Source: a candidate division Zixibacteria bacterium RBG_16_53_22
Lineage (GTDB): Bacteria; Zixibacteria; MSB-5A5; UBA10806
Direction: 5' to 3'
Length of the DNA: 64,000 nucleotides
Assembly (NCBI GenBank): GCA_001775395.1
Contig: MEWP01000131.1
Location: 16,350 to 80,349 of the forward strand
The notes beneath the pieces are model-generated. The model saw only the letters and a program-made list of their open reading frames with translations. It ran no database searches and had not been told where the DNA came from. The translations under genes were made by a program, and so were the position numbers. Of the stretch, positions 3,012-15,720 are shown piece after piece. Numbering within the stretch: position 1 is the first letter of the stretch; each line of letters starts with the position of its first letter.

Positions 3012-4381
3012 TGATTAAGACAAGAATGCTCAAATTGCCTGGCCTTACGGCGCTCGCCGCATCTGCAATTTGGATTGCGGGAATGCCAACCGATTTGCAG
3101 GCGCAGGCCAATGATAAATACAGCAAATTCGTGCATGAGGTTCTTCCCAATGGCCTCGATTTGATAATCAGCCACAACCCCGATAGTCGGGTATTCGCGA
3201 TAAATATACTCGCTAAGAATCGGGCCGCCAATGAGCCCGAGGGCAAGACGGGAATCACCGATTTTGTCAACCGTATGCTGGCGCTGGGCGCCGACAGCAT
3301 GAACGCCGAGCAGATACAAAACAGGCTCGATGATATCGGCGCGGAGCTGACAACAAACGATAACCCTTATATACCCTACGACGACAGATATACCTCGCGC
3401 TCGTTCTCGTTTATCAAGTTCGAAACAATCGACGAGTACGCCGAGCAGGGAACCAAACTGCTCTTTGACATCGTTGCCAGAGCCCAATTCCCCGAATCCG
3501 AAATCGGCAAGACCAAGAAGAAGGTTATGGGCATACTGGGAATGTCATCGGGTTCCACTTACCAGGTTTGCCGCGACCTGATGTACAAAAACCTGTTCAA
3601 GGGACATCCGTTCGGCAACCCGGTTATGGGCTCCATGGAGACGGTGGGCTCATTCATGCGGGAGGACCTGGTTGCTCACCATAGGCATTTCTACGCCCCC
3701 AATAACATGATCATGGCCGTGGCCACCAACCTCGATCCGGAGATTGTCAAGGCTTGGGTCTATTTGACGTTCGGTACAATGCTTGGTGATAGTACTCCTT
3801 ATGCAAATGGCCAGTCGGTCGAGAAGCCTAAAGGTATCGTAACCGCTCATCAGGAGATGGACAAAGAGCAGGTCTACATCTATATGGGGATGATAACTCC
3901 GGGCCTGAAATCGCCGGACGCGCCCGCTATTCATATGGCCTCGACTATAATATCGTCGCGCATGGGCCTGAATCTTCGGGAAAAGCAGGGCCTGGCCTAT
4001 TCCGTAGGCATGGGCGTGGAATTCATGCCCGATTATGGCTGGGCCGTAGCCGACATGGGCACCGGATTTAAGAACATGGAGATTGCCCAGCGAGGAATGG
4101 TGGAACGGATCAATAGCATCAAGAATGAGGCGCCATCCGAGAAGGAGCTTCAAAAAGCGCAGAACTCCACCTGGGGCTCGATGCTTCTGGCGCGGGCCTC
4201 GCGTATCAACCAGGCGTTCTACATGTGCAAAAATCAATTCCTCGGTGCCGGATACGATTACGAAAACGATTACCTGACCAAAGTCCGAAAAGTCAAACCG
4301 CAGGATGTTCAGCGCGTGGCGAAGGCATATTTCGATACCGGCAATATGGTCGTGGCAACCGTGGGAAAGCGGGGACAATAG
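3008..4381 (+). CDS. M16 family peptidase-like protein lacking HxxEH (non-catalytic partner)
   Basis: Signal peptide and M16-like architecture. It overlaps the upstream gene (GTGATGA). No HxxEH is present (GITDFVNRMLALG sits at the equivalent position). Confidence 0.75.
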   Translation: MMIKTRMLKLPGLTALAASAIWIAGMPTDLQAQANDKYSKFVHEVLPNGLDLIISHNPDSRVFAINILAKNRAANEPEGKTGITDFVNRMLALGADSMNAEQIQNRLDDIGAELTTNDNPYIPYDDRYTSRSFSFIKFETIDEYAEQGTKLLFDIVARAQFPESEIGKTKKKVMGILGMSSGSTYQVCRDLMYKNLFKGHPFGNPVMGSMETVGSFMREDLVAHHRHFYAPNNMIMAVATNLDPEIVKAWVYLTFGTMLGDSTPYANGQSVEKPKGIVTAHQEMDKEQVYIYMGMITPGLKSPDAPAIHMASTIISSRMGLNLREKQGLAYSVGMGVEFMPDYGWAVADMGTGFKNMEIAQRGMVERINSIKNEAPSEKELQKAQNSTWGSMLLARASRINQAFYMCKNQFLGAGYDYENDYLTKVRKVKPQDVQRVAKAYFDTGNMVVATVGKRGQ

Positions 4382-4431
4382 CATCCGCCATACAACAAAA
4401 TCAGAATTGCGGTAGCGATAACAAAATTTAG

Positions 4432-4740
4432 GGGCGTTCAAATGAACACCCCTACAGAATGAAATTTCCACTTTGGGGGTGGCGTCAGGTCTTCAGACCT
4501 GACGCTCAGCCTGTTGACAAAATGGCTATGATGAGGAAAAATCTCGATACTCGGAAATGACAATTCTGCATGTTGTAGGGGCGTATCGCCATACGCCCCT
4601 ACATTAAATTACCCGACACCTCAACTCAATTTATTACCGATTTGCCATCAACCTCGGCGTCAGGTCTTCAGACCTGACGCTTTTTTTTGCGTGGCGTCGT
4701 ATCGCCTTTCAGCTGAGGTCGAGGTCTCTCGAGACCTGAC
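4432..4740. repeat. Cluster of short palindromic hairpin repeats; two copies are identical 26-mers
   Basis: ggcgtcaggtcttcagacctgacgct occurs identically at 4481-4506 and 4656-4681. Related hairpins are aggtctctcgagacct (4718-4733), gtaggggcgtatcgccatacgcccctac (4574-4601, 12-bp stem) and aggggcgttcaaatgaacacccct (4434-4457). Confidence 0.55.
4657..4688 (+). terminator. Rho-independent terminator (11-bp stem plus T8)
   Basis: gcgtcaggtct-tc-agacctgacgc followed by tttttttt. Confidence 0.6.
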
Positions 4741-4761
4741 CCGACGCTTTTCTTCTCATCA

Positions 4762-4786
4762 ACAAAAAAACCGGGGACCACCCCGC
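4762..4786 (-). terminator. Rho-independent terminator downstream of the icd/leuB-family gene
   Basis: On the minus strand: cggggtggtccccgg followed by TTTTTTTT. It lies about 65 nt after the stop at 4852. Confidence 0.6.
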
Positions 4787-4851
4787 ACTCGCCCAAGACT
4801 CGGCAGGGGTAAACAGGGGTCCCGGGCTACAAACAATATCAAGAATCGATT

Positions 4852-5976
4852 TTACATCTTCCCCACCACGGCCTGGGCTATTTCCAGCGTGGTGTTCTGG
4901 CCGCCCATATCATACGTGCGGACCTTCCCCTCGCGGATAACGGCGGCAATGGCGTCTTCCAGCGATTCGGCAGCCGAGGTCTCGCCCAGCCAGTCGAGCA
5001 TGAGCTTGACTGTCAAGAGCGTGGCCATGGGGTTGACCTTGTACATGCCGGAATATTTCGGGGCGCTGCCATGTGTCGGCTCGAACACGGCGTAGTTGTC
5101 GCCGATATTGCCCGAACTGGCGAAACCCAGGCCTCCGACCAACTGCGCCGCCAGGTCGGAGATGATATCGCCGAACATGTTCGAGGTCACCAGCACCGAG
5201 TAATCCTGCGGATTCTTTAATAGCCACATGCACATGGCATCGATATTGGCCTCATAAAACCGAATACCCGGATAATTCTTGGCTACCTCGCGGGCGGTGC
5301 GAACGAACAGCCCCGAGGTTTCCCTCAGCACGTTGGGTTTTTCCACCACGGTAACGCTTGGCTTGCCGTGCTTTTTGGCGTATTCGAAAGCGTCGGTGAC
5401 GATGTTGCGGCTGGCCCGCTTGGTGATGATGCGCAGCGATATGGCCATTTCGTTGGCCGGAGTGCTCGAAAAGCGTTTCATCTTCGCGTTGTTCTTCTCC
5501 GTCGCCTGCCGGAAATCATCGGGCACGGGGAAGAATTCGACCCCCGAATATAGGTCCTCGGTGTTTTCTCGAAATACGGTCAGGTCGATATCATCGCGGT
5601 AATTGAGAGGATTCCCGGGATAGGCCTTGCACGGCCTCAAGTTGGTGCGCAGGTCGAACATTTGGCGGAGTTTCACGATAGGCGAAGCATACGCGATGCT
5701 TTTTCCGCGCAGTTCGGAAGCCAACTCCGCCTCGGCCTCCTCCTTCGGCTTGGAGGTTATGGCGCCGAAGAGAGCGCAGGTCGTGTTCTTGAGGATATTG
5801 ATGGTCCGATCCGGGAGAGGATTCCCCTCCTTGCGCCAGTTTTCCCAGCCGATTTCGGCCGGAATATATTCAGCATCGAGTTTGATCTTATCCAGAACAA
5901 TTTTGGCGGCGTCCAAAACATCATTGCCAACACCATCGCCAGGCATCCAGGCGATCTTGTATTTAGCCATCTCCAA
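4852..5976 (-). CDS. Isocitrate/3-isopropylmalate dehydrogenase family protein (probably NAD(P)-dependent)
   Basis: N-terminal [13 protein letters not shown] glycine-rich motif, 374 aa, and family-typical C-terminal [17 protein letters not shown]. It is a stand-alone gene with no leu neighbours. Confidence 0.8.
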
Positions 5977-6315
5977 CTCCTTTTTACGATTTCTTTCGAA
6001 TTTGCTGGCCTAAATCTATCAATAGGAATTGGCTGAGCAAGCAAAAAGTGTGTGACGATCACCTGGCCTTTATCGTCAGCCGGCTACAGAATAATATTGG
6101 CTTCCAGACTTCAGAAGTTGTCACATGGTCCGTGGTATGCCAAAGACAAGGCGCTGATTGAGGAAAGCCGGGCCCACGCAAAATACGTACCCTGTCCTCT
6201 ATATGAGAGGCATAAAGCGTCGTCTCTCAACGCGAATTGGACAGCTTAAGCACAACGTGATGAGGACTTCTGAAGCCTGCTATTTATTCTCAGAGTGCAG
6301 CAGGTGCAGGGAGGC

Positions 6316-7227
6316 TTACAACCGTATGCGCAGGGTTAAACGGTGCGTGTCGCTGAAATCATTTTTCGAGGGTACATAGGCATAGTCGAAGAAATAAGCC
6401 CTGAACGATATTCCTCCACCGATCGAGAATCCGCGCGAATCATAGTTAATGCCATAACCCGCGCGAAGGGAAAACATGTCTTGATAAATGTACTCTCCGC
6501 CGAGATTGAATTTATTGCTCTTATTCCCCCAATGTGGGATTACATAATCGCCGGAGAAAATGATCCCCCGCAGCCGCGAATCTTCCATGGGACTGCAGGA
6601 TGCGCCAATGCGGACCTCGCGGGGCAAGTCAAATGGCTTGTCGATGAATTTTGGCCTGGTGCCCAAATTTCGAACCGACATTCCCAGGGCCAACTCCGGC
6701 AACGGCATGTAAATGGCGCCAAGATCGATTGCGAAAGCCGAGGCGCTTTCGATGTCGAGTTTCTGATAGGCCCACTTGAGCGAATTGCCAAGCGACAGCC
6801 TGTCGCCGAACGGGCGCGCCAAAAATACCGAAAGAGTGAAATTGTGATCATCGAACGTGCCAAGCGGCTCGCTCGATGGGTTCGAATCGCGACGCTCGAT
6901 ATCGCTGGTCTGGCCGAGATAAAGCCCCAGGCCGAACCTTAAATCGCCCGATCGCGTAATGGCCGAAAAATGCTCCATCGAGGCATCGGTAAGATATGAA
7001 ACATGCATGAGCGAAATCTCGCTGCTCTGCATATGTGCCGCCGAGGCGGGATTGAAATAAGGCGCGCCGGCGTCTCCGGACACGGCCGTGAAAGCCTCCC
7101 CCATGGCCGCAGCTCGGGAGCCCGAGCCGATCAACATGAAAAGAAACGAGCCGGATTCGGACTGGGCGTATGACATGCCGTAGCCCAGGACAACAATGAC
7201 AATGGCGATCGCTGATTTGTGCATCAT
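6316..7227 (-). CDS. PorV/PorQ-like (FadL-like) outer-membrane beta-barrel protein, T9SS-associated, paralog 2
   Basis: Signal peptide and N-proximal motif SRAAAMGEAFTAVSGDAGAPYFNPAS. The C-terminus ends in an aromatic residue. Confidence 0.5.
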   Translation of the reverse strand: MMHKSAIAIVIVVLGYGMSYAQSESGSFLFMLIGSGSRAAAMGEAFTAVSGDAGAPYFNPASAAHMQSSEISLMHVSYLTDASMEHFSAITRSGDLRFGLGLYLGQTSDIERRDSNPSSEPLGTFDDHNFTLSVFLARPFGDRLSLGNSLKWAYQKLDIESASAFAIDLGAIYMPLPELALGMSVRNLGTRPKFIDKPFDLPREVRIGASCSPMEDSRLRGIIFSGDYVIPHWGNKSNKFNLGGEYIYQDMFSLRAGYGINYDSRGFSIGGGISFRAYFFDYAYVPSKNDFSDTHRLTLRIRL

Positions 7228-8216
7228 TAGAATCCCAATTTAAGGGCAAATAGATGCCCGTCCGACGTGCCGTGCTGACCTATCAAATATGCATACTCTA
7301 TGGCGGCCGACCGGTCCCCTTTGAGGTACGCCAGCGATCCCCCGAAAGTGGGGCTGCCCCGGTCGATTCCGATTCTCAGCCCGGCCCAACGCTTGTGCAT
7401 CTCGACCTCGTTAAACTTGCCCTCCTCGTATTCGTCCTCCACGAGTTGGATAACTTTCCTGGTGAACCAATATTCGGCGCCGGCCCTGAACAGCGTCCCG
7501 GTCTTGTCGCTTTTTTCGAAATCGACAGCCGGAATGACCCTGCCGTCAAGCAGATTGCCCGCCAGACCGAATTTGAATATCACCGGGTATTTCTCCTCGT
7601 AGGTTGTGCCATCGCCCCAATAAGCATTGGTGTCCCACCTGTAGGTGGAACCGAGGTTCTGAACCACACCGCCGAGCGAAATGAGCTCCCTGTAACGGAA
7701 TAAAAATCCGGCATCGACACCGATGGTGAAAACATCCAGCTCATCGAGCTTCTCCTGGAGATATCGCAGGCTGGCCCCGAGTGCGGCCGAACCATTGATC
7801 GCCTTGCCGAATGACAGAGTAAAAGCATTTTGATTGTTGTTGATATTGCCAATAATCTGCTGCGATGAGCCGCGGCCCACTATATCCGATACGCCGGCAT
7901 TGACCCAACTGGCGGCCATGACAGCCTCGCTCCTGATCGGAAATGAGATAGCGATGTGGCCGAGGTGCCGATCCAGCGAGAGGGCCTTATAGCTGAGACT
8001 GGTCCCCAGACGCATTTCGAATCCCAGCCCGGCGGGATTGAAGTAGGTGGCCTCGGGCCCCTCGGCAATTGCGGTGAAGGCCCCGCCCATCCCAAGCGGC
8101 CTGGCTCCGACTCCACTTCGCATGAAGGCGCCCGAATAGCCGGCGTCACCCTCACCGGCCATGGCGCAGGAGGCGGAAAACATAAGAACCGATATTATGC
8201 CAGCAAGTTTGTTCAT
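7227..8216 (-). CDS. PorV/PorQ-like (FadL-like) outer-membrane beta-barrel protein, T9SS-associated, paralog 1
   Basis: Signal peptide and GARPLGMGGAFTAIAEGPEATYFNPAGLG motif. The terminal F is typical of outer-membrane proteins. Its stop overlaps the start of paralog 2. Confidence 0.5.
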   Translation of the reverse strand: MNKLAGIISVLMFSASCAMAGEGDAGYSGAFMRSGVGARPLGMGGAFTAIAEGPEATYFNPAGLGFEMRLGTSLSYKALSLDRHLGHIAISFPIRSEAVMAASWVNAGVSDIVGRGSSQQIIGNINNNQNAFTLSFGKAINGSAALGASLRYLQEKLDELDVFTIGVDAGFLFRYRELISLGGVVQNLGSTYRWDTNAYWGDGTTYEEKYPVIFKFGLAGNLLDGRVIPAVDFEKSDKTGTLFRAGAEYWFTRKVIQLVEDEYEEGKFNEVEMHKRWAGLRIGIDRGSPTFGGSLAYLKGDRSAAIEYAYLIGQHGTSDGHLFALKLGF

Positions 8217-9715
8217 TTGATCACCACGACCTTTCCCCAGAGGTCCTCGCCGTAATCGAGCTCCACGCGGTAGAAATAAATCCCGTTGGCGACTATCTTT
8301 CCCTTATCATTGGTGCCGTCCCAGACAATGTCATCCGATTCAACGCCTCCGATTCTATCACGATCGACTGCAACCGTCTTTACCAACTCAAGATTGAAAT
8401 CGTAGATTTTCACCGATGCCCTGGTATTTCTATCCGGCCTGAAATGGACCGTCGAGCCTTTCCTGGTGGAATGATACGGAGAGAATGGGGATGGATAAGC
8501 ATAATGATTGGCAGGATCGAGTTGAGAGCGATATACCCGCCATTCTCCGTCAGATCGGCGCGCGGCGCCATCCGAGCCGCCGGCCCAGACGATATCACCG
8601 ACGACGTCGACTGCGTAAAATGGCGCGTTGTCCTGGTAAAAGGTCTGCCTTTGGGGATCACGGAGACCGGACAGAAGGGTCCAGGAGCTGTAATCGCCGT
8701 TAGATTGATAGAGCCCGAAACTGGTGGCGACATATACCGTATCGCCATTGAAGGCGAAATCCCAGGCCTCGACATCGGGATTATCCGATGGACCAATGAT
8801 ATTGGCTATATGCCAGGTCGCGCCGTCGTCCGTGGTGTAAGCCACTCGTCTCTCCTCCCCCGAAACGACTGCCCGACAAGCGGCCCATACCGTCTTGACA
8901 GTGTCGATCAAATTAATTCCCAGGGCCACCACGTGGTTTCCGGGAAGCTTGAGGGAATCGGGCAAAGTCGTGTCGGATACCGAGAAGGCGTACTGCTCGA
9001 TTGAATCCGGGTAAGTATGAAAGGCGCCAGTGATAGTATCGGCATAGAAGAAAAATCTATATATCCCCCTGGCGGCGCCGCCCCAAACCGAGAAGATATC
9101 CGGGAAATCGGTGGTATCCGTTTTGACAGAGAAAAAGCGATTGCCGAGGCTTCGAAATACGCTTCCATCAAAATCGGCGGAATCGGTGTTGACACTATCA
9201 AGCTGCGTGGGAAACAAGTTGGTCCAGGTGACACCCCAGTCCGTGGAACGGATGAGGCCGCCATAAAAGCAGGCGCCGAAAGCCAGCGAATCATGAAGCG
9301 ACAGGTCGTAGGCAAGCATGCCGACCCGGGTGGCCTGCATCGGCTGTCTATTAATCCAAACCGAATCGGGACGCCCCAAAAAGGAAATCCCATCTCCTTC
9401 GGGATACTCATCGCCCTGGAATTCGCGCGAGTGCGAGGTAGCGACCCAGACAGCCCGATCGTTGGCCGAGAGAGCCGAGACCTCGTCGGCCGCAAGGGGC
9501 TCGTGGCCATAGGTGGTCCAGGTAGCTCCACTGTCGCTGGTGGCTGAGGCGCCCCCGCCTGTGCCGAGCCAAATGGATGTGGAATCGTGGTCGATATCGA
9601 TTACGGAGTTGGATGTCATACCGGTCCGCCCGCCCTGGACAGTCATCTCGATTTCGGCATGCGCCAGGCCCACGAGGGAAAGCGGCAGGAATAAAGCGAG
9701 GAGTTTTCTCATCAC
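8213..9715 (-). CDS. Secreted BNR/Asp-box repeat protein with a T9SS C-terminal sorting domain (type A)
   Basis: Signal peptide and SxDxGxTW repeats (SDSGATWT, STDWGVTWT, TDDGATWH). The roughly 70-aa C-terminus (KIYDFNLELVKTV...GIYFYRVE...VVVIK) is typical of a Por secretion tail. Confidence 0.65.
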   Translation of the reverse strand: MMRKLLALFLPLSLVGLAHAEIEMTVQGGRTGMTSNSVIDIDHDSTSIWLGTGGGASATSDSGATWTTYGHEPLAADEVSALSANDRAVWVATSHSREFQGDEYPEGDGISFLGRPDSVWINRQPMQATRVGMLAYDLSLHDSLAFGACFYGGLIRSTDWGVTWTNLFPTQLDSVNTDSADFDGSVFRSLGNRFFSVKTDTTDFPDIFSVWGGAARGIYRFFFYADTITGAFHTYPDSIEQYAFSVSDTTLPDSLKLPGNHVVALGINLIDTVKTVWAACRAVVSGEERRVAYTTDDGATWHIANIIGPSDNPDVEAWDFAFNGDTVYVATSFGLYQSNGDYSSWTLLSGLRDPQRQTFYQDNAPFYAVDVVGDIVWAGGSDGAARRSDGEWRVYRSQLDPANHYAYPSPFSPYHSTRKGSTVHFRPDRNTRASVKIYDFNLELVKTVAVDRDRIGGVESDDIVWDGTNDKGKIVANGIYFYRVELDYGEDLWGKVVVIK

Positions 9716-9720
9716 GACCT

Positions 9721-10149
9721 CTAGTAGGCTGTTATTATTTGTGACGGGGTGTTTGATCGATTTTCCTGCTTGTCATATGCATAAAAAATAAACGTGTAAT
9801 CACCGGATTGGCTGGTGGGCAGCGGTGATGGAATAATATAAGTATAGCAACCATCGTTGGCGGTGGAGTCTCCATTGACCCCATCGTCATGCAAGAGAAA
9901 CCGAATGCCGTTGGAGGTGCTGTCCGGCCTGGTTACCATGTAATAAACAGAATCGATATCATCCAATCCGTCGGGATCAAATGCGTTAACGGCTAAATAC
10001 GAGGAATCGGGCGAGCCTTTTTCCAGCGAATCGGGCGCGACAAGGTCGAATAATACAGGACCATACCGGACGTCGATGACCTTTTTCTCGCAAGAAATAG
10101 CGACCAAAATGGATAAAATTGCTGCGCTAAAGCTGAATTTTGTTAACAT
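9721..10149 (-). CDS. Small lipoprotein with Asp-rich (possibly Ca-binding) motifs
   Basis: Signal peptide plus lipobox (LVAISC). Motifs DPDGLDD and HDDGVNGDSTANDG. It is the first gene of the T9SS mini-operon. Confidence 0.5.
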   Translation of the reverse strand: MLTKFSFSAAILSILVAISCEKKVIDVRYGPVLFDLVAPDSLEKGSPDSSYLAVNAFDPDGLDDIDSVYYMVTRPDSTSNGIRFLLHDDGVNGDSTANDGCYTYIIPSPLPTSQSGDYTFIFYAYDKQENRSNTPSQIITAY

Positions 10150-10249
10150 CGGGCCGCCTATTAATTAAAGTTGTTACCCCAAAAAGCATTAGTAAATTAT
10201 AATAGGCGGCCTCCGATCTAAAGTAAAGATAAAAAAGGGGTTAATGTAA

Positions 10250-11182
10250 TTAAGATCGTATTTTTTCGGGGTAAAGCGCGGCTCCAAATCTCAGGCCTCC
10301 GGTTGAAACTACAAGTGTATCTTGCTCTATTATACTCAGGAAGGCCAGAAATATTCCCAAGCCCGGCAAAATAAGTTCGGCCCGATCTGGATCAAATGGA
10401 ATCAACTCCCGGCGCCGGGCCAGATTGGCATGCTCAAATTTATGGGCAAGCTTCGAAAGAAGGTCCAAAGTCAGGGGCGACCCGTGAATACGCGCAGGAA
10501 CATAATTTATGAGACCAGCTATCACAGCGGCCGCTGAGGTAATAGTGCCGCCGGTGGCAATGACAGCGGAATTTCCCAGGCTTGGGAATTCCGCCAGCGG
10601 GTTCATCAGATAGTCGACCCCCCGTCCTGTGTAATAGCCATAGAGGTCCTCGGTATCATCTGGAAGCGATTCAAGAAGCTTGAGCGCACCTATCGGGATG
10701 CTTTTAGAATCGAGGATCGTCCCTTTCGATGCAGCCGCCAATTCCGTTGAGCCGCCGCCAACATCGATCAGGATGATTTCGTCAGTCGACAAATCCAGGT
10801 TATACATGGCTCCAAGAAAAGATAATTCGGCTTCATTGCTGCCTGAAATTATTTGAAGATCGAGGCTGGTTTCCCGTTTCAAGGCCTTGGCGAATTCATC
10901 TGAATTTTCGGCCAATCTTAGGGCCTCAGTGCCCAGAAGATAAGCAGCCTCCCATTCCGATTCTCGCACGAACCGCGTGACCGCTGCTGCTGTTCGCTGC
11001 ATAGCTGATTCAGTGAGTCTCCTGGCCGATATTGACCCTTCTCCCAGACGCGTGGTGGCCTTCTTATCGGAAATGACCTCCAAACTCCTGCCATCAACCC
11101 GCGCCACGAGGGCCAGCGTTGAATTTGTGCCTATATCGACTACGAGGCGTTGTTCAGCGGGCACTGATAGAGCTCTTTCCAA
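10250..11182 (-). CDS. Ppx/GppA family phosphatase (short form)
   Basis: LVVDIGTNSTLALVA N-terminal motif and IDVGGGSTEL second ASKHA motif. 310 aa. Confidence 0.8.
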   Translation of the reverse strand: MERALSVPAEQRLVVDIGTNSTLALVARVDGRSLEVISDKKATTRLGEGSISARRLTESAMQRTAAAVTRFVRESEWEAAYLLGTEALRLAENSDEFAKALKRETSLDLQIISGSNEAELSFLGAMYNLDLSTDEIILIDVGGGSTELAAASKGTILDSKSIPIGALKLLESLPDDTEDLYGYYTGRGVDYLMNPLAEFPSLGNSAVIATGGTITSAAAVIAGLINYVPARIHGSPLTLDLLSKLAHKFEHANLARRRELIPFDPDRAELILPGLGIFLAFLSIIEQDTLVVSTGGLRFGAALYPEKIRS

Positions 11183-12551
11183 CGCGGGATTTTGCGGGGC
11201 CCGTGGAATCGGTCATCGTGAGCCATAGCAATTCACCTTGACCTACCAGACTGCCCTGTGTGAAAACATAATCTGGAATATTTAGATAACGATACCTGCT
11301 TCGGATAACCTGCCAATAGAACCTGGCCAGTTCCACGGCCTCGCACTCCGGCAAGATCATGTCGGCGGCAGGCGTAATCTCGTCCTCGGAAAGTTCCAGT
11401 CTCGGCTGGGTGCGGCAAAGGCGGATGGCACGGGTGGTCATATTATCAAGGTCGGGCATCTTGAACGCCGGGACATATAAATAAAATGCATTTTTGGCCT
11501 TATTCTTGGCTATCAAAGGAATCTCTCCGGTGAGGATTTTTGCAAATTCGCCGACACTGCTTTCGCCCCTGCCACCCTTGAATTGGAAACGCCAATACGG
11601 AAAATAGTCCTTTCCCTGCTCGTGCAAGGCCGACCTGGTCTTTGTAAGCCTGTAACCATCAGATACGACAATATATGATTTATGGCAATTCCGACAATAA
11701 TAAATAAGCGAAAACTCGGAAACGGGCAAATCCGCTCCGCAATTGGGGCATCGATGCGGTATCGGTTTGAATTCGTCGCCAATTACCAGGCCGGTTTCTC
11801 CCGATCTATCTTCAAATGGCTCAGATGTCTCGTTGATAATCCTTTTTGAAAGACCATCGATAAAATAGGTGACCGGCATCCCGCCAACGGTGGCCGACAG
11901 GGCCCAGACCGGATAATAGATTATCGAGAGCCCCTCCCCTATCATCTCGGAGATGACATGTTCCTTACCCTCGAGGGCGAAACCGAGATTAAACGCGAAC
12001 ATGCCCATAGCTGATTGTTTAGCATCGTCAGGACTTACTCTGATACCGAGAGGAATCGACCTCGGGAGCAAGATGTCTTTAGCAAAAACGCTTAAAGGAA
12101 TGACCTCCGGCCGCACGCCGAGGCTCTCCAGGCCGAATGCCTTATTCTCGAAAGCTGGAATAGTCAGATCAAAATGACGGCATCTCTGATGAAAAATGGT
12201 CTTGCTCGGTATGACAGCCTGATCGAGCTCGATCTCATCATCTTCGTATTTTTTCTCAGACATGAGCGAATAAGACATGCCCCGGAAACGATAAAATGGA
12301 AGGAAATACAACCGGGTTGTGTCTAAAGCCACGGTGGACAAACGGCCATTGTCCCTCAGATGTTTCTCGACTGCGCATTTCAAGGCGAAGTTATCGAGGT
12401 CGCTTGGATAATAATATTTCAGGATCCTGCCTGGCGCCCCGATCCGCATAACCAGCCCGCAAAATACGCATTGCATGCTGATAGCACCCTCGAGTGTCAA
12501 GAGAGACGAGCCACATCCGGGACAGTTGAAACTGGTCTTGTAATCGGCCAT
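11154..12551 (-). CDS. Double zinc-ribbon protein with an internally duplicated module (function unknown)
   Basis: The module CPGCG..CVFCG + YYYPSD..LYFLPFYRFRG repeats as CPNCG..YCRNCH + ..DYFPYWRFQFKG..FYLYVPAF. Its 3' end overlaps the ppx start by 29 nt. Confidence 0.6.
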   Translation of the reverse strand: MADYKTSFNCPGCGSSLLTLEGAISMQCVFCGLVMRIGAPGRILKYYYPSDLDNFALKCAVEKHLRDNGRLSTVALDTTRLYFLPFYRFRGMSYSLMSEKKYEDDEIELDQAVIPSKTIFHQRCRHFDLTIPAFENKAFGLESLGVRPEVIPLSVFAKDILLPRSIPLGIRVSPDDAKQSAMGMFAFNLGFALEGKEHVISEMIGEGLSIIYYPVWALSATVGGMPVTYFIDGLSKRIINETSEPFEDRSGETGLVIGDEFKPIPHRCPNCGADLPVSEFSLIYYCRNCHKSYIVVSDGYRLTKTRSALHEQGKDYFPYWRFQFKGGRGESSVGEFAKILTGEIPLIAKNKAKNAFYLYVPAFKMPDLDNMTTRAIRLCRTQPRLELSEDEITPAADMILPECEAVELARFYWQVIRSRYRYLNIPDYVFTQGSLVGQGELLWLTMTDSTGPAKSRVGKSSISAR

Positions 12552-12563
12552 TTTCGACCGCTT

Positions 12564-13685
12564 TTATTCGTTTCCGGCCAGACGCTCGCCGCAATTGGTG
12601 CAGAATTTCGATCCGGGAGTCAGCCTGGCACTGCATTTGGGGCAAACCGGCTTCTCACCAAGCTTTTTCCCGCAGGCGAAACAGAAATTGGCTTCCAGTG
12701 GCAAATCGGCGCCGCATTCGGGGCACTTATTCGCCGATACAATAGGGTTACCGCACTTGTAGCAGAATCGAGAATTCTGCGGCGTATCAATGCCGCATTT
12801 CTGGCATGTGATGGTCGGCAATGCCTCGGTCTTCAGATCGCGCTCGTTCGGCGAAAATGCGTTGGATAGCATCGCAGGCACCATCAGGCCAATACCAGCC
12901 CCCAGCCCCATGCCGGCCCCGGCCTGGGCAGGGTCACTGCCCGACGACATCGCCTTGGCCAGTGAATACTTGAGGAATTTGTTGAGGTCCCCAACAGCCG
13001 CCATCGAGGACTTCTCGTCGATCATCTTCTGGACCTCGTCCGGAGGGGTAATGGAGGTGATATAAAAATCAATAAGCTCCATGCCATATTTGCCGAATTC
13101 ATTGGCGATCTTCTCTTTTATCTCGCGGCTCATTTCATCATATCGCTTTGGCAAATCGAGAATGGTATCGAGCCGCTCACCAAAGATGTCATTAATCCTG
13201 GCGACTATAACGTCGCGAAGATAACCGGAGATAATATCTGTCGAAAACGCCGCCTCTCGCCCCACCAGAGAATTGATGAACAAGAGCGGCTCTACAATGC
13301 GGCAGGTGTAGACTCCATATCCACGAAGCCGCACCAGGCCCAGCTCCGTGTCACGGAATGCGACCGGATCGCGCGTACCCCATTTGAGATTGGTAAAGAC
13401 TTTGTGATTGATAAAATAGACCTCACACCTGATTGGGGATTTAAAGCCCCACGGCAACGATAGCGTGCGGGTCAAGAGCGGCACGTTGAGCGATGTCAGT
13501 GAGTGCCTTCCCGGACCCAGGATATCGTACCCCTTGCCGGATTTGAAGAAAACGGCCGATTGCGAATCCCTGACGATCAACTGCGCTCCGGCCTTGATAT
13601 CGAGCGAGCCTTTTTCGGGAATGCGGTGAATCATGTCGGTCGGGCTCATGTCGACCCATTCGAGAATCTCCATCATTACTGACAT
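12564..13685 (-). CDS. SPFH/band-7 (stomatin-like, COG4260-type) protein with C-terminal triple zinc ribbon
   Basis: SPFH-like N-terminal region. The C-terminus has CQKCG..CYKCG, CPECG..CFACG and CPKC..CTNCG zinc ribbons. Confidence 0.7.
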   Translation of the reverse strand: MSVMMEILEWVDMSPTDMIHRIPEKGSLDIKAGAQLIVRDSQSAVFFKSGKGYDILGPGRHSLTSLNVPLLTRTLSLPWGFKSPIRCEVYFINHKVFTNLKWGTRDPVAFRDTELGLVRLRGYGVYTCRIVEPLLFINSLVGREAAFSTDIISGYLRDVIVARINDIFGERLDTILDLPKRYDEMSREIKEKIANEFGKYGMELIDFYITSITPPDEVQKMIDEKSSMAAVGDLNKFLKYSLAKAMSSGSDPAQAGAGMGLGAGIGLMVPAMLSNAFSPNERDLKTEALPTITCQKCGIDTPQNSRFCYKCGNPIVSANKCPECGADLPLEANFCFACGKKLGEKPVCPKCSARLTPGSKFCTNCGERLAGNE

Positions 13686-13801
13686 ACCAAGCCTCCAAAT
13701 ATTACAGGTCTTTTTTCATAATCGAATACGCGACTACCCCGCCTATTCTATTATCGGCCGGAATTTGGGCCAATGGAGGATTCCATCCTCGTGCCCCGCC
13801 T

Positions 13802-13948
13802 GGGCGCGATTGCGCGGCCCCGCCCGCGGGGCCCCGGGCGAAAGCCCGTCGCATGTGACATAAACATGCCTCCGATCTCGTCTCAGGCATTCCGGCGGCA
13901 CGCGGGCTTTCGCCCTCCTGGCCCCTTTGGGGCCAGGCGCAATCGCGC
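13802..13948. repeat. GC-rich nested inverted repeat (two ~47-bp arms, each with an internal hairpin)
   Basis: Left arm ggcgcgattgcgc-ggccccgcccgcggggcc-ccgggcgaaagcccg. Right arm is its imperfect reverse complement cgggctttcgccc-tcctggcccctttggggcc-aggcgcaatcgcgcc. A GNRA-like gggc-gaaa-gccc stem-loop is embedded in the left arm. Confidence 0.5.
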
Positions 13949-14039
13949 CGCGCGGCGCAGCCGTTTAAAAAGAAAAACGCGATGGCGGAAGAAAGGCCGT
14001 CGCACGCTAAAATTCGTATTGAATTTATGGGGGAATTAC

Positions 14040-14116
14040 TGGTCGGGGCGAGCCGATTTGAACGGCCGACCACTTGCACCCCAAGCAAGTGCGCTACCAG
14101 GCTGCGCCACGCCCCG
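14040..14116 (-). tRNA. tRNA-Pro (anticodon GGG)
   Basis: Minus-strand sequence CGGGGCGTGGCGCAGCCTGGTAGCGCACTTGCTTGGGGTGCAAGTGGTCGGCCGTTCAAATCGGCTCGCCCCGACCA. Cloverleaf with a 7-bp acceptor stem, anticodon loop TTGGGGT and GTTCAAATC T-loop. CCA is encoded. Confidence 0.9.
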
Positions 14117-14150
14117 AACCGTTTGGATAATAATAAACACTGGTGATAAA

Positions 14151-14492
14151 TCAAGAGAAAAGTTTTAGGATATCCTCGAGTTCAAGCCGGATTTCATGCA
14201 GCAGCGCGCGGGTCCTTTCGGCTGACGAGTTCTCGGTAACCTGCTTGCCTTCTTTCTTGAGAAAATTGCGGGCTCCCTCGATTGTGAAGCCTTGTTCGTA
14301 TAGCAGGCGTTTGATCTGCATTATCCGCTGGATATCCTTGGCCTGGTAAGTGCGATTGCCGGCCCGGTTCTTGCGAGGCTTGATGTGAGGAAATTCCTTC
14401 TCCCAGAATCGCAGCACGTATGGCACAACACCCACCATTTCGGCCACCTCGGAGATGGAATAGTACATTTTCCCTTGAAGTCCTTTTGGCAT
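14151..14492 (-). CDS. MerR family transcriptional regulator
   Basis: N-terminal [27 protein letters not shown] (MerR signature), followed by a coiled-coil tail. Confidence 0.7.
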
Positions 14493-14496
14493 AATG

Positions 14497-15720
14497 CTAC
14501 GAGCCTTCGGTGCCGCCCATGATATAGGGTCTCAGGCGTGTGACACGCGACTCAACACCCCCTTCGTAGAATATGATTTCGAGTTTATCATCGATGGCAA
14601 CTTGCCTGAAACTCCTGACGGCCTGGCCTTCGCCGTTGCGCACATAAGAATAACCGCGTTCGAGTATGGACCGCGGCGAAACCACCTCGAGTTTTTCGAA
14701 TGTCGATTGGAAGCGTTGCTTGAGCGTGGTCATGCGATGCGACAGATGAATATTGACTAACTTCCGCAGTTCCTCGCAGCGATGGGTCCTCTGGATTATG
14801 ATATCGAGGGGGCGCTTCAGGCCATAGCGGGAACCAAGTTCCACCAACCGCAACTTGAGCTGACTCAGTATATCTGTAATATCATCCCCAAGTCGCCCCA
14901 CCAGCTCATCTACACGCATGGCCAGTTGATTAATATCGGGCGCCGCCATTTCCGCCGCCGCGGATGGTGTTGGGGCGCGCAGGTCGGCGACAAAATCGGA
15001 AATCGAGAAATCTATTTCATGCCCAACAGCCGAGATGACCGGCAGTTCCGACTCGTAGATGGCCCGTGCCACCGTTTCCTCATTGAACGCCCAGAGGTCT
15101 TCTAACGAGCCGCCGCCACGTCCGACTATCAGCAGATCGACCAGTTCCAGCCTATTAAAGCCTCGGATTGCTTTGGCAATTTGCCCTGCCGCGCCTTCGC
15201 CCTGAACCTGCACCGGCCAGATTATGATCTCGACATTCGGCGCCCGGCGCCGGGTTATGTTTAAAATGTCCCTGATAGCGGCGCCTGTAGGCGAGGTTAC
15301 AACGCCGATACGCATCGGAAATCTCGGGATGGGCACTTTGTGGGCGGGATCAAATAGCCCCTCATCGGACAGCCGTCTCTTCAACTCCTGAAAGGCAATC
15401 TCAAGCTCGCCGATCCCGGCTGGTTGTAGACTCGTGATATTTAATTGGTATTGGCCCGATTTTTCATAGACTGTCACCTGTCCAAAAGCCCTGACTTTCA
15501 TACCATCCTGGGGTTCGAAAATCAGCGAATTACCGGCCCATTTCCAGATGACACATTTGATCTGCGCGGCCTGGTCCTTCAATGTAAAATAGCGATGGCC
15601 CGATGAATGCCTGAGGTAATTCGAGATTTCGCCCTCAACCCAAATCCTGACGAAATTACTCTCAAGTAATTCTTTAATTGACCTTGTTAACTCGCTGATT
15701 GTGTATATCTTATCAGACAT
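14497..15720 (-). CDS. xseA: Exodeoxyribonuclease VII large subunit
   Basis: The N-terminal OB-fold region and full-length XseA-like sequence (407 aa) are recognised by eye. Confidence 0.9.
   Translation of the reverse strand: MSDKIYTISELTRSIKELLESNFVRIWVEGEISNYLRHSSGHRYFTLKDQAAQIKCVIWKWAGNSLIFEPQDGMKVRAFGQVTVYEKSGQYQLNITSLQPAGIGELEIAFQELKRRLSDEGLFDPAHKVPIPRFPMRIGVVTSPTGAAIRDILNITRRRAPNVEIIIWPVQVQGEGAAGQIAKAIRGFNRLELVDLLIVGRGGGSLEDLWAFNEETVARAIYESELPVISAVGHEIDFSISDFVADLRAPTPSAAAEMAAPDINQLAMRVDELVGRLGDDITDILSQLKLRLVELGSRYGLKRPLDIIIQRTHRCEELRKLVNIHLSHRMTTLKQRFQSTFEKLEVVSPRSILERGYSYVRNGEGQAVRSFRQVAIDDKLEIIFYEGGVESRVTRLRPYIMGGTEGS

Follow-up and report, generated by a model that had tools for sequence, protein, structure and literature searches.

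A conserved SPFH and duplicated zinc-ribbon gene pair in Zixibacteria, probably of the YdjI/YdjG type, and its lineage-specific Ppx/GppA neighbour

To our knowledge, the SPFH module made up of YdjI and YdjG (SamI and SamG) has been studied only in Bacillus, where PspA serves as its readout. The locus described here lies in 64,000 nucleotides (nt) of candidate division Zixibacteria bacterium RBG_16_53_22 (GenBank assembly GCA_001775395.1, contig MEWP01000131.1, positions 16,350 to 80,349 of the forward strand; hereafter the window). It consists of three minus-strand genes, which encode an SPFH protein with zinc ribbons (gene 1), a protein with a duplicated zinc-ribbon module, termed ZnR2 (gene 2), and a Ppx/GppA phosphatase (gene 3, Ppx for short). 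Genes 1 and 2 form a conserved unit and are an obligate pair. The favoured, though by no means certain, reading is that they constitute a two-protein module of the YdjI/YdjG (SamI/SamG) type, with Ppx as a non-core passenger.

A link between YdjI/YdjG and PspA, which the initial annotation of the locus had mentioned in connection with membrane stress, is indeed on record in three sources (PMC8581546; PMC11237479; bioRxiv 10.64898/2026.02.06.704340). YdjI (SamI) is described, in two of them, as a soluble protein in which a low-complexity region precedes a zinc finger (PMC8581546; bioRxiv 10.64898/2026.02.06.704340). YdjG combines two zinc ribbons with an NTF2-like domain related to YpeB and with a transmembrane (TM) segment (Ravi et al. 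2024). This segment tethers the SPFH protein to the membrane, and YdjI recruits PspA there. Bacillus SamI is recruited by SamG and SamH, whose signalling it restrains. Loss of SamI in B. subtilis leads to a starvation-like transcriptional state, according to one report (bioRxiv 10.64898/2026.02.06.704340). Other described systems, namely the SPFH-NfeD operons (QmcA-YbbJ, YqiK-YqiJ, FloA/FloT-NfeD) and HflK/C-FtsH, share with the present locus the logic of an SPFH scaffold whose gene adjoins that of a dedicated partner, the scaffold organising where or how this partner acts. Here, however, there is no NfeD or protease partner, the SPFH protein has neither a TM nor a hairpin anchor, and the fold of the partner is unrelated; Pfam detects no NfeD domain in either gene adjoining the SPFH gene.

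The three genes and the two modules of ZnR2 lie as follows.

12564..13685, minus strand: SPFH gene (gene 1), 373 amino acids (aa), from the listing of open reading frames (ORFs)
11154..12551, minus strand: ZnR2 gene (gene 2), 465 aa, from the ORF listing
11787..12551, minus strand: N-terminal module of ZnR2, aa 1-255, with ribbon cysteines C10, C13, C28 and C31 and a helix plus curved-sheet alpha+beta domain bearing an LPFYRFRG motif
11154..11786, minus strand: C-terminal module of ZnR2, aa 256-465, with ribbon cysteines C268, C271, C286 and C289 and a second alpha+beta domain bearing a PYWRF motif
10250..11182, minus strand: Ppx/GppA gene (gene 3) as the longest ORF, from TTG 11182, 310 aa, from the ORF listing
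10250..11164, minus strand: Ppx/GppA gene from its preferred start, GTG 11164, 304 aa, a short two-domain phosphatase

The pairing of genes 1 and 2 emerges from a census of gene neighbourhoods, in which genes were called by tblastn and by hmmsearch with profiles built for this analysis. A scan seeded with ZnR2 and covering one genome per species gave 32 loci, almost all from Zixibacteria metagenome-assembled genomes (MAGs), and a scan of metagenome contigs seeded with the SPFH protein gave 80 loci at 50-82% SPFH identity. ZnR2 stands directly behind the SPFH gene in every locus with downstream DNA (31/31 genome loci and 71/71 metagenome loci), which amounts to 102/102 related loci with enough DNA. 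In most genome loci the two genes are separated by a 12-18 nt gap or overlap by 8 nt, and gaps of several hundred nt occur in some metagenome loci. Distant ZnR2 relatives of 521-565 aa are likewise found directly 3′ of genes for Band_7_1 proteins with zinc ribbons. Upstream of the pair no gene recurs: the 90 upstream genes fall into 59 clusters, the largest of which is a co-oriented cation diffusion facilitator (CDF) zinc/cation exporter (Cation_efflux + ZT_dimer) directly 5′ of the SPFH gene in eight loci (L014-L016, L021, L023, L045, L048, L052). Since upstream gene content differs so much among loci, it is consistent with the SPFH gene heading the transcription unit. In the deepest loci (L026-L032) the SPFH protein is 56-58% identical to that of the window and ZnR2 21-25%, so that the partner evolves much faster than the scaffold. 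Five loci (L082, L101, L102, L111, L118) contain an extra short gene for a single ribbon-plus-domain module between the SPFH gene and the two-module ZnR2 gene; in L101 a PAP2 phosphatase gene follows.

The product of gene 1 matches Pfam Band_7_1 (PF13421; E 5.2e-63; 212.9 bits, cut-off 24), with aa 27-229 aligned to positions 8-210 of the 211 in the profile. This domain is joined by a hydrophobic low-complexity linker rich in Gly and Ala (aa ~255-277) to C-terminal ribbons at aa 294-368, which Pfam matches as three Zn_Ribbon_1 domains with CxxC motifs at aa 294/308, 321/335 and 348/362, in keeping with the three zinc ribbons that the initial annotation gave this SPFH protein. Both the linker and the full set of 12 ribbon cysteines are invariant in homolog alignments, and the best 120 of more than 5,700 matches have 59-93% identity. 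Hydropathy gives no clear TM helix in this protein, the maximum Kyte-Doolittle (KD) value, KD(19), being 1.53 and falling within the linker. A PDB sequence search returned zinc-finger noise only.

ZnR2 is 100% identical to a protein recorded as hypothetical for candidate division Zixibacteria bacterium RBG_16_53_22. It belongs to no Pfam family above cut-off and has no NCBIfam or PDB match beyond ribbon noise, which in the PDB sequence search is of the ribosomal zinc-ribbon kind. It does give a weak Pfam match to Zn_Ribbon_TF (PF08271, E 0.018), the family reported for YdjG. That the protein is built of two copies of a ribbon and beta-region module had been read from its letters, and the duplication now has statistical support: both ribbon-plus-domain modules are visible in a 23-sequence alignment, from which hhalign matches the N-half to the C-half with a probability of 95.4% (E 5.8e-9, 195 columns). 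In each half a zinc ribbon is joined to a PepSY/cystatin/NTF2-like domain, the ribbon being followed by an alpha+beta domain of the YpeB-related or NTF2-like kind. All eight ribbon cysteines are invariant in 38 diverse homologs, and the final ~15 residues are disordered. The AlphaFold2 model is a confident one, with a predicted local distance difference test (pLDDT) score of 84.4 and a predicted template modelling (pTM) score of 0.81; the Foldseek search with this model that the initial annotation had suggested found no whole-chain relative.

The family around ZnR2 is large. Searched with a profile, 1.84 billion cluster representatives yielded 1,450 relatives at E <= 1e-3, counted as clusters at 50% identity, 703 of them at E <= 1e-10. 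Most are 450-520 aa long, and the named members belong to Zixibacteria, to an Elusimicrobiota MAG or to unclassified bacteria. Exactly four CxxC motifs are present in 176 of the 198 full-length members. No TM helix is found in the ZnR2 of the window or in any of these 198 (198/198); only two of them reach a KD value of at least 1.9, in both cases in a segment within a conserved beta-strand. In two loci (L033, positions 4273-6588, and L034) the family is apparently split into three adjacent overlapping genes of 242, 324 and 206 aa, which match the ribbon, the N-module and the C-module, respectively, and which have no SPFH gene within 5 kb.

Dyads of a related kind occur outside Zixibacteria. 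On plasmids, tblastn with the SPFH protein as query picks up Band_7_1 genes of Proteobacteria, Actinobacteria and Gemmatimonadota. Directly 3′ of Band_7_1 in Paracoccus pFER4, Vibrio coralliilyticus and Tsukamurella stands a gene whose product begins with two ribbons, continues with an alpha/beta domain bearing the motifs PxWxF and YxPxW, and has a TM helix at its C-terminus. The Paracoccus and Vibrio partners share these two motifs with ZnR2. The Paracoccus partner matches the ZnR2 profile both in hmmsearch (1.9e-14) and in hhalign (96.5%, E 8.7e-10), and the Vibrio partner does so in hmmsearch (1e-11); the Tsukamurella partner has the same layout by inspection, with a marginal hidden Markov model match (E 1.7e-4). 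These plasmid- and chromid-borne dyads share with the Zixibacteria pair the order of SPFH gene first and partner directly behind, but each of their partners has only one alpha/beta domain and carries a TM helix at its C-terminus, and none of the dyads has Ppx. Because ZnR2 is homologous to TM-type partners that have the published YdjG layout, it is best described, on sequence grounds, as a duplicated, anchor-less derivative of a YdjG-type partner. The first ten residues of YdjG, taken from a primer only (MIISYKCPNC), resemble those of the Vibrio protein (MLIDTKCSNC). DUF4178 proteins encoded behind Band_7_1 in the polyamine operons of Ralstonia and Novosphingobium were considered as members of the same partner family and set aside, as they share just the ribbon with ZnR2.

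The SPFH protein of the Paracoccus dyad ends in GYF_2 instead of ribbons, and its neighbours are TelA and DUF2927; on Paracoccus ferrooxidans pFER4 (L125, 2689-7407) the order is TelA, DUF2927, Band_7_1/GYF_2 SPFH and a YdjG-like protein with two ribbons, an alpha/beta domain and a TM helix. One Elusimicrobiota member of the ZnR2 family is annotated as GYF domain-containing. These GYF occurrences suggest domain swapping between SPFH proteins and ZnR2-type partners.

Set beside the B. subtilis operon PspA-YdjG-YdjH-YdjI (PspA-SamGHI), the Zixibacteria locus shows likenesses in both proteins. Each SPFH protein is an anchor-free Band_7_1 protein with a linker and a C-terminal zinc finger, each partner combines N-terminal zinc ribbon(s) with a YpeB/PepSY/NTF2-like domain, and the two are encoded in one operon. 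The differences concern the order of the genes, which is reversed in Zixibacteria, with SPFH first, and the domains of the proteins: the Zixibacteria SPFH protein has three ribbons, whereas the papers give YdjI a single zinc-finger motif, and its partner is a doubled ribbon-plus-domain protein without a TM helix. Moreover, the host is a Gram-negative-type candidate phylum, Ppx/GppA is attached in one clade, and the locus has no linked PspA or TPM-domain YdjH. The absence of a visible PspA homolog, already remarked in the initial annotation, holds for PspA and TPM alike among the operon neighbours and ten further ORFs of the window, and neither occurs in the Pfam-labelled related loci, the other loci not having been scanned systematically.

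If genes 1 and 2 form a YdjI/YdjG-type module, the SPFH protein would, by analogy with its relatives, oligomerise into a sub-membrane scaffold. ZnR2 would then be a dedicated partner that binds this oligomer, probably ribbon to ribbon, as an adaptor or regulator. Lacking a TM helix, ZnR2 cannot anchor the SPFH protein, and the two may be held together by their ribbons in a soluble or peripheral complex, in which the duplicated ZnR2 may serve as a fused pseudo-dimer. Membrane contact, if any, would be made through the conserved Gly/Ala hydrophobic linker or through an unlinked protein. The module would have a role in membrane stress, and Ppx would be co-expressed with the pair in one large Zixibacteria clade.

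The layout of the locus is in line with such co-expression. The initial annotation had reported three packed minus-strand genes with a 12-nt gap followed by a 29-nt overlap. The packing and the gap, which runs from the SPFH stop to the ZnR2 ATG (12552-12563), agree with the ORF listing, and the 29-nt overlap applies to the longest ORF, from TTG 11182. The most likely start of Ppx is instead GTG 11164, which overlaps the ZnR2 stop codon by 11 nt and has GGAAAGAG just 5′ of it. Three orthologous loci (L004-L006) have the same overlap geometry and no earlier start codon, and an independent gene call on the identical contig also begins Ppx at GTG 11164, giving 304 aa; TTG 11182 was dropped as a start because GTG 11164 agrees with both. 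No terminator-like site is present at either junction (SPFH/ZnR2 or ZnR2/Ppx). Tight packing thus makes it almost certain that the three genes form one transcript, as had been proposed, and the overlap of the Ppx start with the ZnR2 stop makes it probable that Ppx is also translationally coupled to ZnR2.

Two candidate signals precede the SPFH gene.

13692..13696, minus strand: GGAGG Shine-Dalgarno-like motif ending 6 nt 5′ of the SPFH ATG, by direct reading of the sequence
13745..13773, minus strand: sigma-70-like promoter candidate TTGGCC-17-TAGAAT, ~60 nt 5′ of the SPFH start, from a consensus scan

The promoter candidate is a weak match (9/12), and the sigma-70 consensus may not be that of Zixibacteria. 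Further upstream are a tRNA-Pro(GGG), a MerR gene and XseA, and within the window the locus is flanked by housekeeping genes (XseA, FolD, RNase Y, tRNA-Pro). An Rfam scan of 9500-14600 yielded the tRNA-Pro only.

The assignment of gene 3 to a short Ppx/GppA stands. Its product matches Pfam Ppx-GppA (PF02541; 2.4e-45, profile positions 1-276 of 285), and its best PDB match is the Ppx/GppA of Aquifex aeolicus (2j4r, 1t6c; 1e-34), in alignment with which (2j4r) the DIGxNS motif, the catalytic Glu and DxGGGSTE are conserved. In NCBIfam, TIGR03706 reaches 181 bits where the exopolyphosphatase cut-off is 307, and the equivalogs for GppA and Ppx stay far below theirs. With the Aquifex enzyme (1t6c, 2j4r) and other Ppx proteins of ~300 aa it shares length, two-domain ASKHA architecture and catalytic motifs; compared with the Aquifex enzyme, sequence identity is modest and the operon context differs.

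The initial annotation had also raised the possibility that all three genes act together. The best-surviving alternative to the passenger reading, and still an unlikely one, is such a three-component system, in which the SPFH/ZnR2 scaffold recruits or regulates Ppx and thereby couples polyphosphate (polyP) or guanosine tetra- and pentaphosphate ((p)ppGpp) turnover to the state of the membrane or envelope. Ppx would here fill the place of YdjH/SamH of Bacillus, with its TPM "phosphatase" domain. Several observations fit. Ppx is the commonest gene behind the pair, its cluster holding 16 of the 78 downstream genes and the next 7, and it follows ZnR2 in 14/30 genome loci and 5/50 metagenome loci (19/80 informative loci). 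The start of Ppx overlaps the stop of ZnR2 by 1-11 nt, most commonly as a 4-nt ATGA, in 19/19 linked loci, even though these span identities of 28-50% in Ppx and 29-53% in ZnR2. On the ZnR2 tree the linkage extends over a large clade, to which it looks ancestral, and is found in L024, a deep branch, as well; it has been lost at least three times. The starvation-like state that follows SamI loss is at least thematically close to (p)ppGpp and polyP (bioRxiv 10.64898/2026.02.06.704340).

Set against the three-component system is the fact that Ppx is absent from 61 of the 80 informative pair loci, where the gene behind the pair is unrelated and encodes a gamma-glutamyltransferase (GGT), a pyruvate dehydrogenase (PDH) E1, a GNAT protein or a methyltransferase, or lies on the opposite strand; one recurrent alternative is a ~890-aa protein of the BNR/type IX secretion system (T9SS) type. 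Conversely, Ppx persists without the pair. The Ppx of the window belongs to a discrete Zixibacteria clade at identities of at least 43%, beyond which there is a cliff to at most 37%. Seven further clade members on long contigs (45-50% identity) all lack SPFH and ZnR2 upstream (7/7), in a sample biased toward unlinked cases, since the first four were chosen as not sharing contigs with ZnR2. These seven have methyltransferases, endonuclease V or CBM96 proteins upstream and retain intact catalytic-family signatures; the four placed on the tree nest within the linked Ppx clade, beside the enzyme of the window. In addition, short overlaps are commonplace among co-directional neighbours in compact genomes, and the linked Ppx has no distinguishing domain or extension.

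Downstream, Ppx adjoins a second conserved set of genes. All seven unlinked Ppx loci keep the downstream block of the window (genes for a small protein, for a BNR/FlgD_ig protein, for one of 328 aa and for one that is UPF0164/PorV-like, compared in L119-L122 and L130-L132), with Iso_dh next wherever the locus extends far enough, and the block is kept in 21/21 Ppx loci with downstream DNA (14 linked, 7 unlinked). In the window, 6316-10149 on the minus strand holds genes for a small choice-of-anchor-X protein, a BNR/FlgD_ig (T9SS-type) protein, two PorV/UPF0164-like outer-membrane proteins and an isocitrate/isopropylmalate dehydrogenase. Ppx is therefore the hinge between two separately conserved blocks, the pair upstream and the secreted-protein and PorV-like genes downstream. 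Either block can break away from it. The attachment, judged from gene order, is real but lineage-specific and dispensable for both sides.

As the pair and Ppx each persist unlinked, both work without adjacency. And because the pair occurs without Ppx and Ppx orthologs occur without the pair, Ppx is not core to the SPFH module and is most simply taken as the ordinary housekeeping enzyme of its lineage; its link to the pair is probably circumstantial. The census of Ppx genes near COG4260-type genes does not show the complete lack of linkage in other genomes that would have spoken against the initial annotation, as the genes are linked in 19 other loci; yet 61 of 80 lack Ppx, and a functional unit of three genes is not supported. 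A more specific version, in which the SPFH/ZnR2 platform positions or gates Ppx/GppA in the major Zixibacteria clade and membrane state switches polyP or (p)ppGpp hydrolysis, is rather improbable. If true, it would represent a PspA-independent output of a YdjI/YdjG-type module and would connect envelope stress with stringent or polyP signalling in a way not described before. In line with the initial annotation, which knew of no such association, literature searches found no paper that links SPFH with exopolyphosphatase and none on COG4260.

Several points weigh against a YdjI/YdjG-type module with a passenger Ppx. No PspA or TPM/YdjH is linked in the window, which leaves the locus without the functional output that defines the Bacillus system. 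The tie between ZnR2 and YdjG rests on the published architecture of YdjG and on homology to proteobacterial and actinobacterial look-alikes. The AlphaFold2 model of the SPFH protein, made with 20 close homologs, has a pLDDT of 39 and gives no structural support for the proposed interaction. The overlap with Ppx is kept down to 29% ZnR2 identity, L024 included, which could reflect selection for co-expression, in which case Ppx might matter. Finally, sigma-70-like matches within ZnR2, at 11316-11289 and 11697-11670, suggest that Ppx may have its own promoter too.

The remaining alternatives concern the pair itself. A function in zinc handling, with the five Cys4 sites of the pair serving as a zinc buffer or sensor, would accord with the invariance of all 20 ribbon cysteines and with the CDF exporter gene next to SPFH in eight related loci. 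That neighbour is seen in a single sub-lineage and not in the window, and Cys4 ribbons are ordinary structural or interaction modules, carried also by YdjI and YdjG in a membrane-stress system, which leaves zinc handling very improbable. An anti-phage role, as an SPFH-based abortive-infection or sensor system, is more improbable still. The fast evolution of the ribbon-rich partner relative to SPFH recalls conflict systems, and one homolog on a Vibrio plasmid has a TIR-domain gene nearby; no PADLOC family, however, matches SPFH or Ppx, and ZnR2 receives noise-level ribbon hits only (E 0.02-0.08), the locus sits amid housekeeping genes, effector domains such as a nuclease or an NTPase are absent, and the pair holds the same syntenic place across the phylum-wide genome set, unlike mobile defence islands. 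The suggestion of phage defence in the initial annotation thus finds no support. Mere adjacency, with separate transcripts and no shared function even for genes 1 and 2, could appeal to the sigma-70-like sites within genes and is scarcely credible: the genes overlap or nearly abut, their junctions lack terminator-like sites, the same dyad recurs in Proteobacteria and Actinobacteria, and chance adjacency of genes 1 and 2 is excluded by 102/102 loci that keep the pair, mostly spaced by 18 nt or less, while both flanks vary.

Two hairpin elements accompany the locus, the first of them behind Ppx.

10157..10215, minus strand: hairpin after Ppx with a 12-bp perfect stem and a 35-nt loop, within a 100-nt spacer

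Only 5 nt separate the end of its 3′ arm from the ATG of the gene that follows (the small choice-of-anchor-X gene), and its fold has a z-score of -2.9. The stem, GGaCGCCUAUU.../...AAUAGGCGgUCC, is conserved in sequence in nine loci (the window, L004-L006, L008 and L119-L122), whether Ppx is linked to an upstream SPFH pair or not, with little covariation (two compensatory pairs); a conserved TTTTTAGCTTTAC-like motif precedes it. The hairpin probably marks the boundary or the 5′ leader of the downstream gene block, for which it could act as a leader that sequesters the ribosome-binding site or as a processing site. The second element, ~165 nt long and GC-rich, is a set of nested hairpins at 13795-13960 on the minus strand, between tRNA-Pro(GGG) and the promoter-like site of the SPFH gene. 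It contains two perfect 13-nt inverted-repeat pairs (13803-15/13937-49 and 13836-48/13903-15), and the 360-nt spacer that holds it has a folding energy of -168 kcal/mol (z -4.2). Rfam gives no match to the element, which occurs just once in the window and is not conserved in L011, the closest locus in synteny.

The probable YdjI/YdjG-type module thus appears in Zixibacteria as a conserved core, the dyad of an SPFH protein and its zinc-ribbon partner, without PspA or YdjH as far as the window-level search for PspA and TPM extends. A TM-anchored form of the dyad stands beside Band_7_1 genes in Proteobacteria and Actinobacteria. In view of the starvation-like phenotype of Bacillus samI mutants, the link to Ppx would be of real interest if it proved functional. 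The analysis provides a first structural and contextual annotation for the large, uncharacterised, Pfam-less ZnR2 family, and it raises the question of how a soluble SPFH scaffold is targeted once its partner has lost the membrane anchor.

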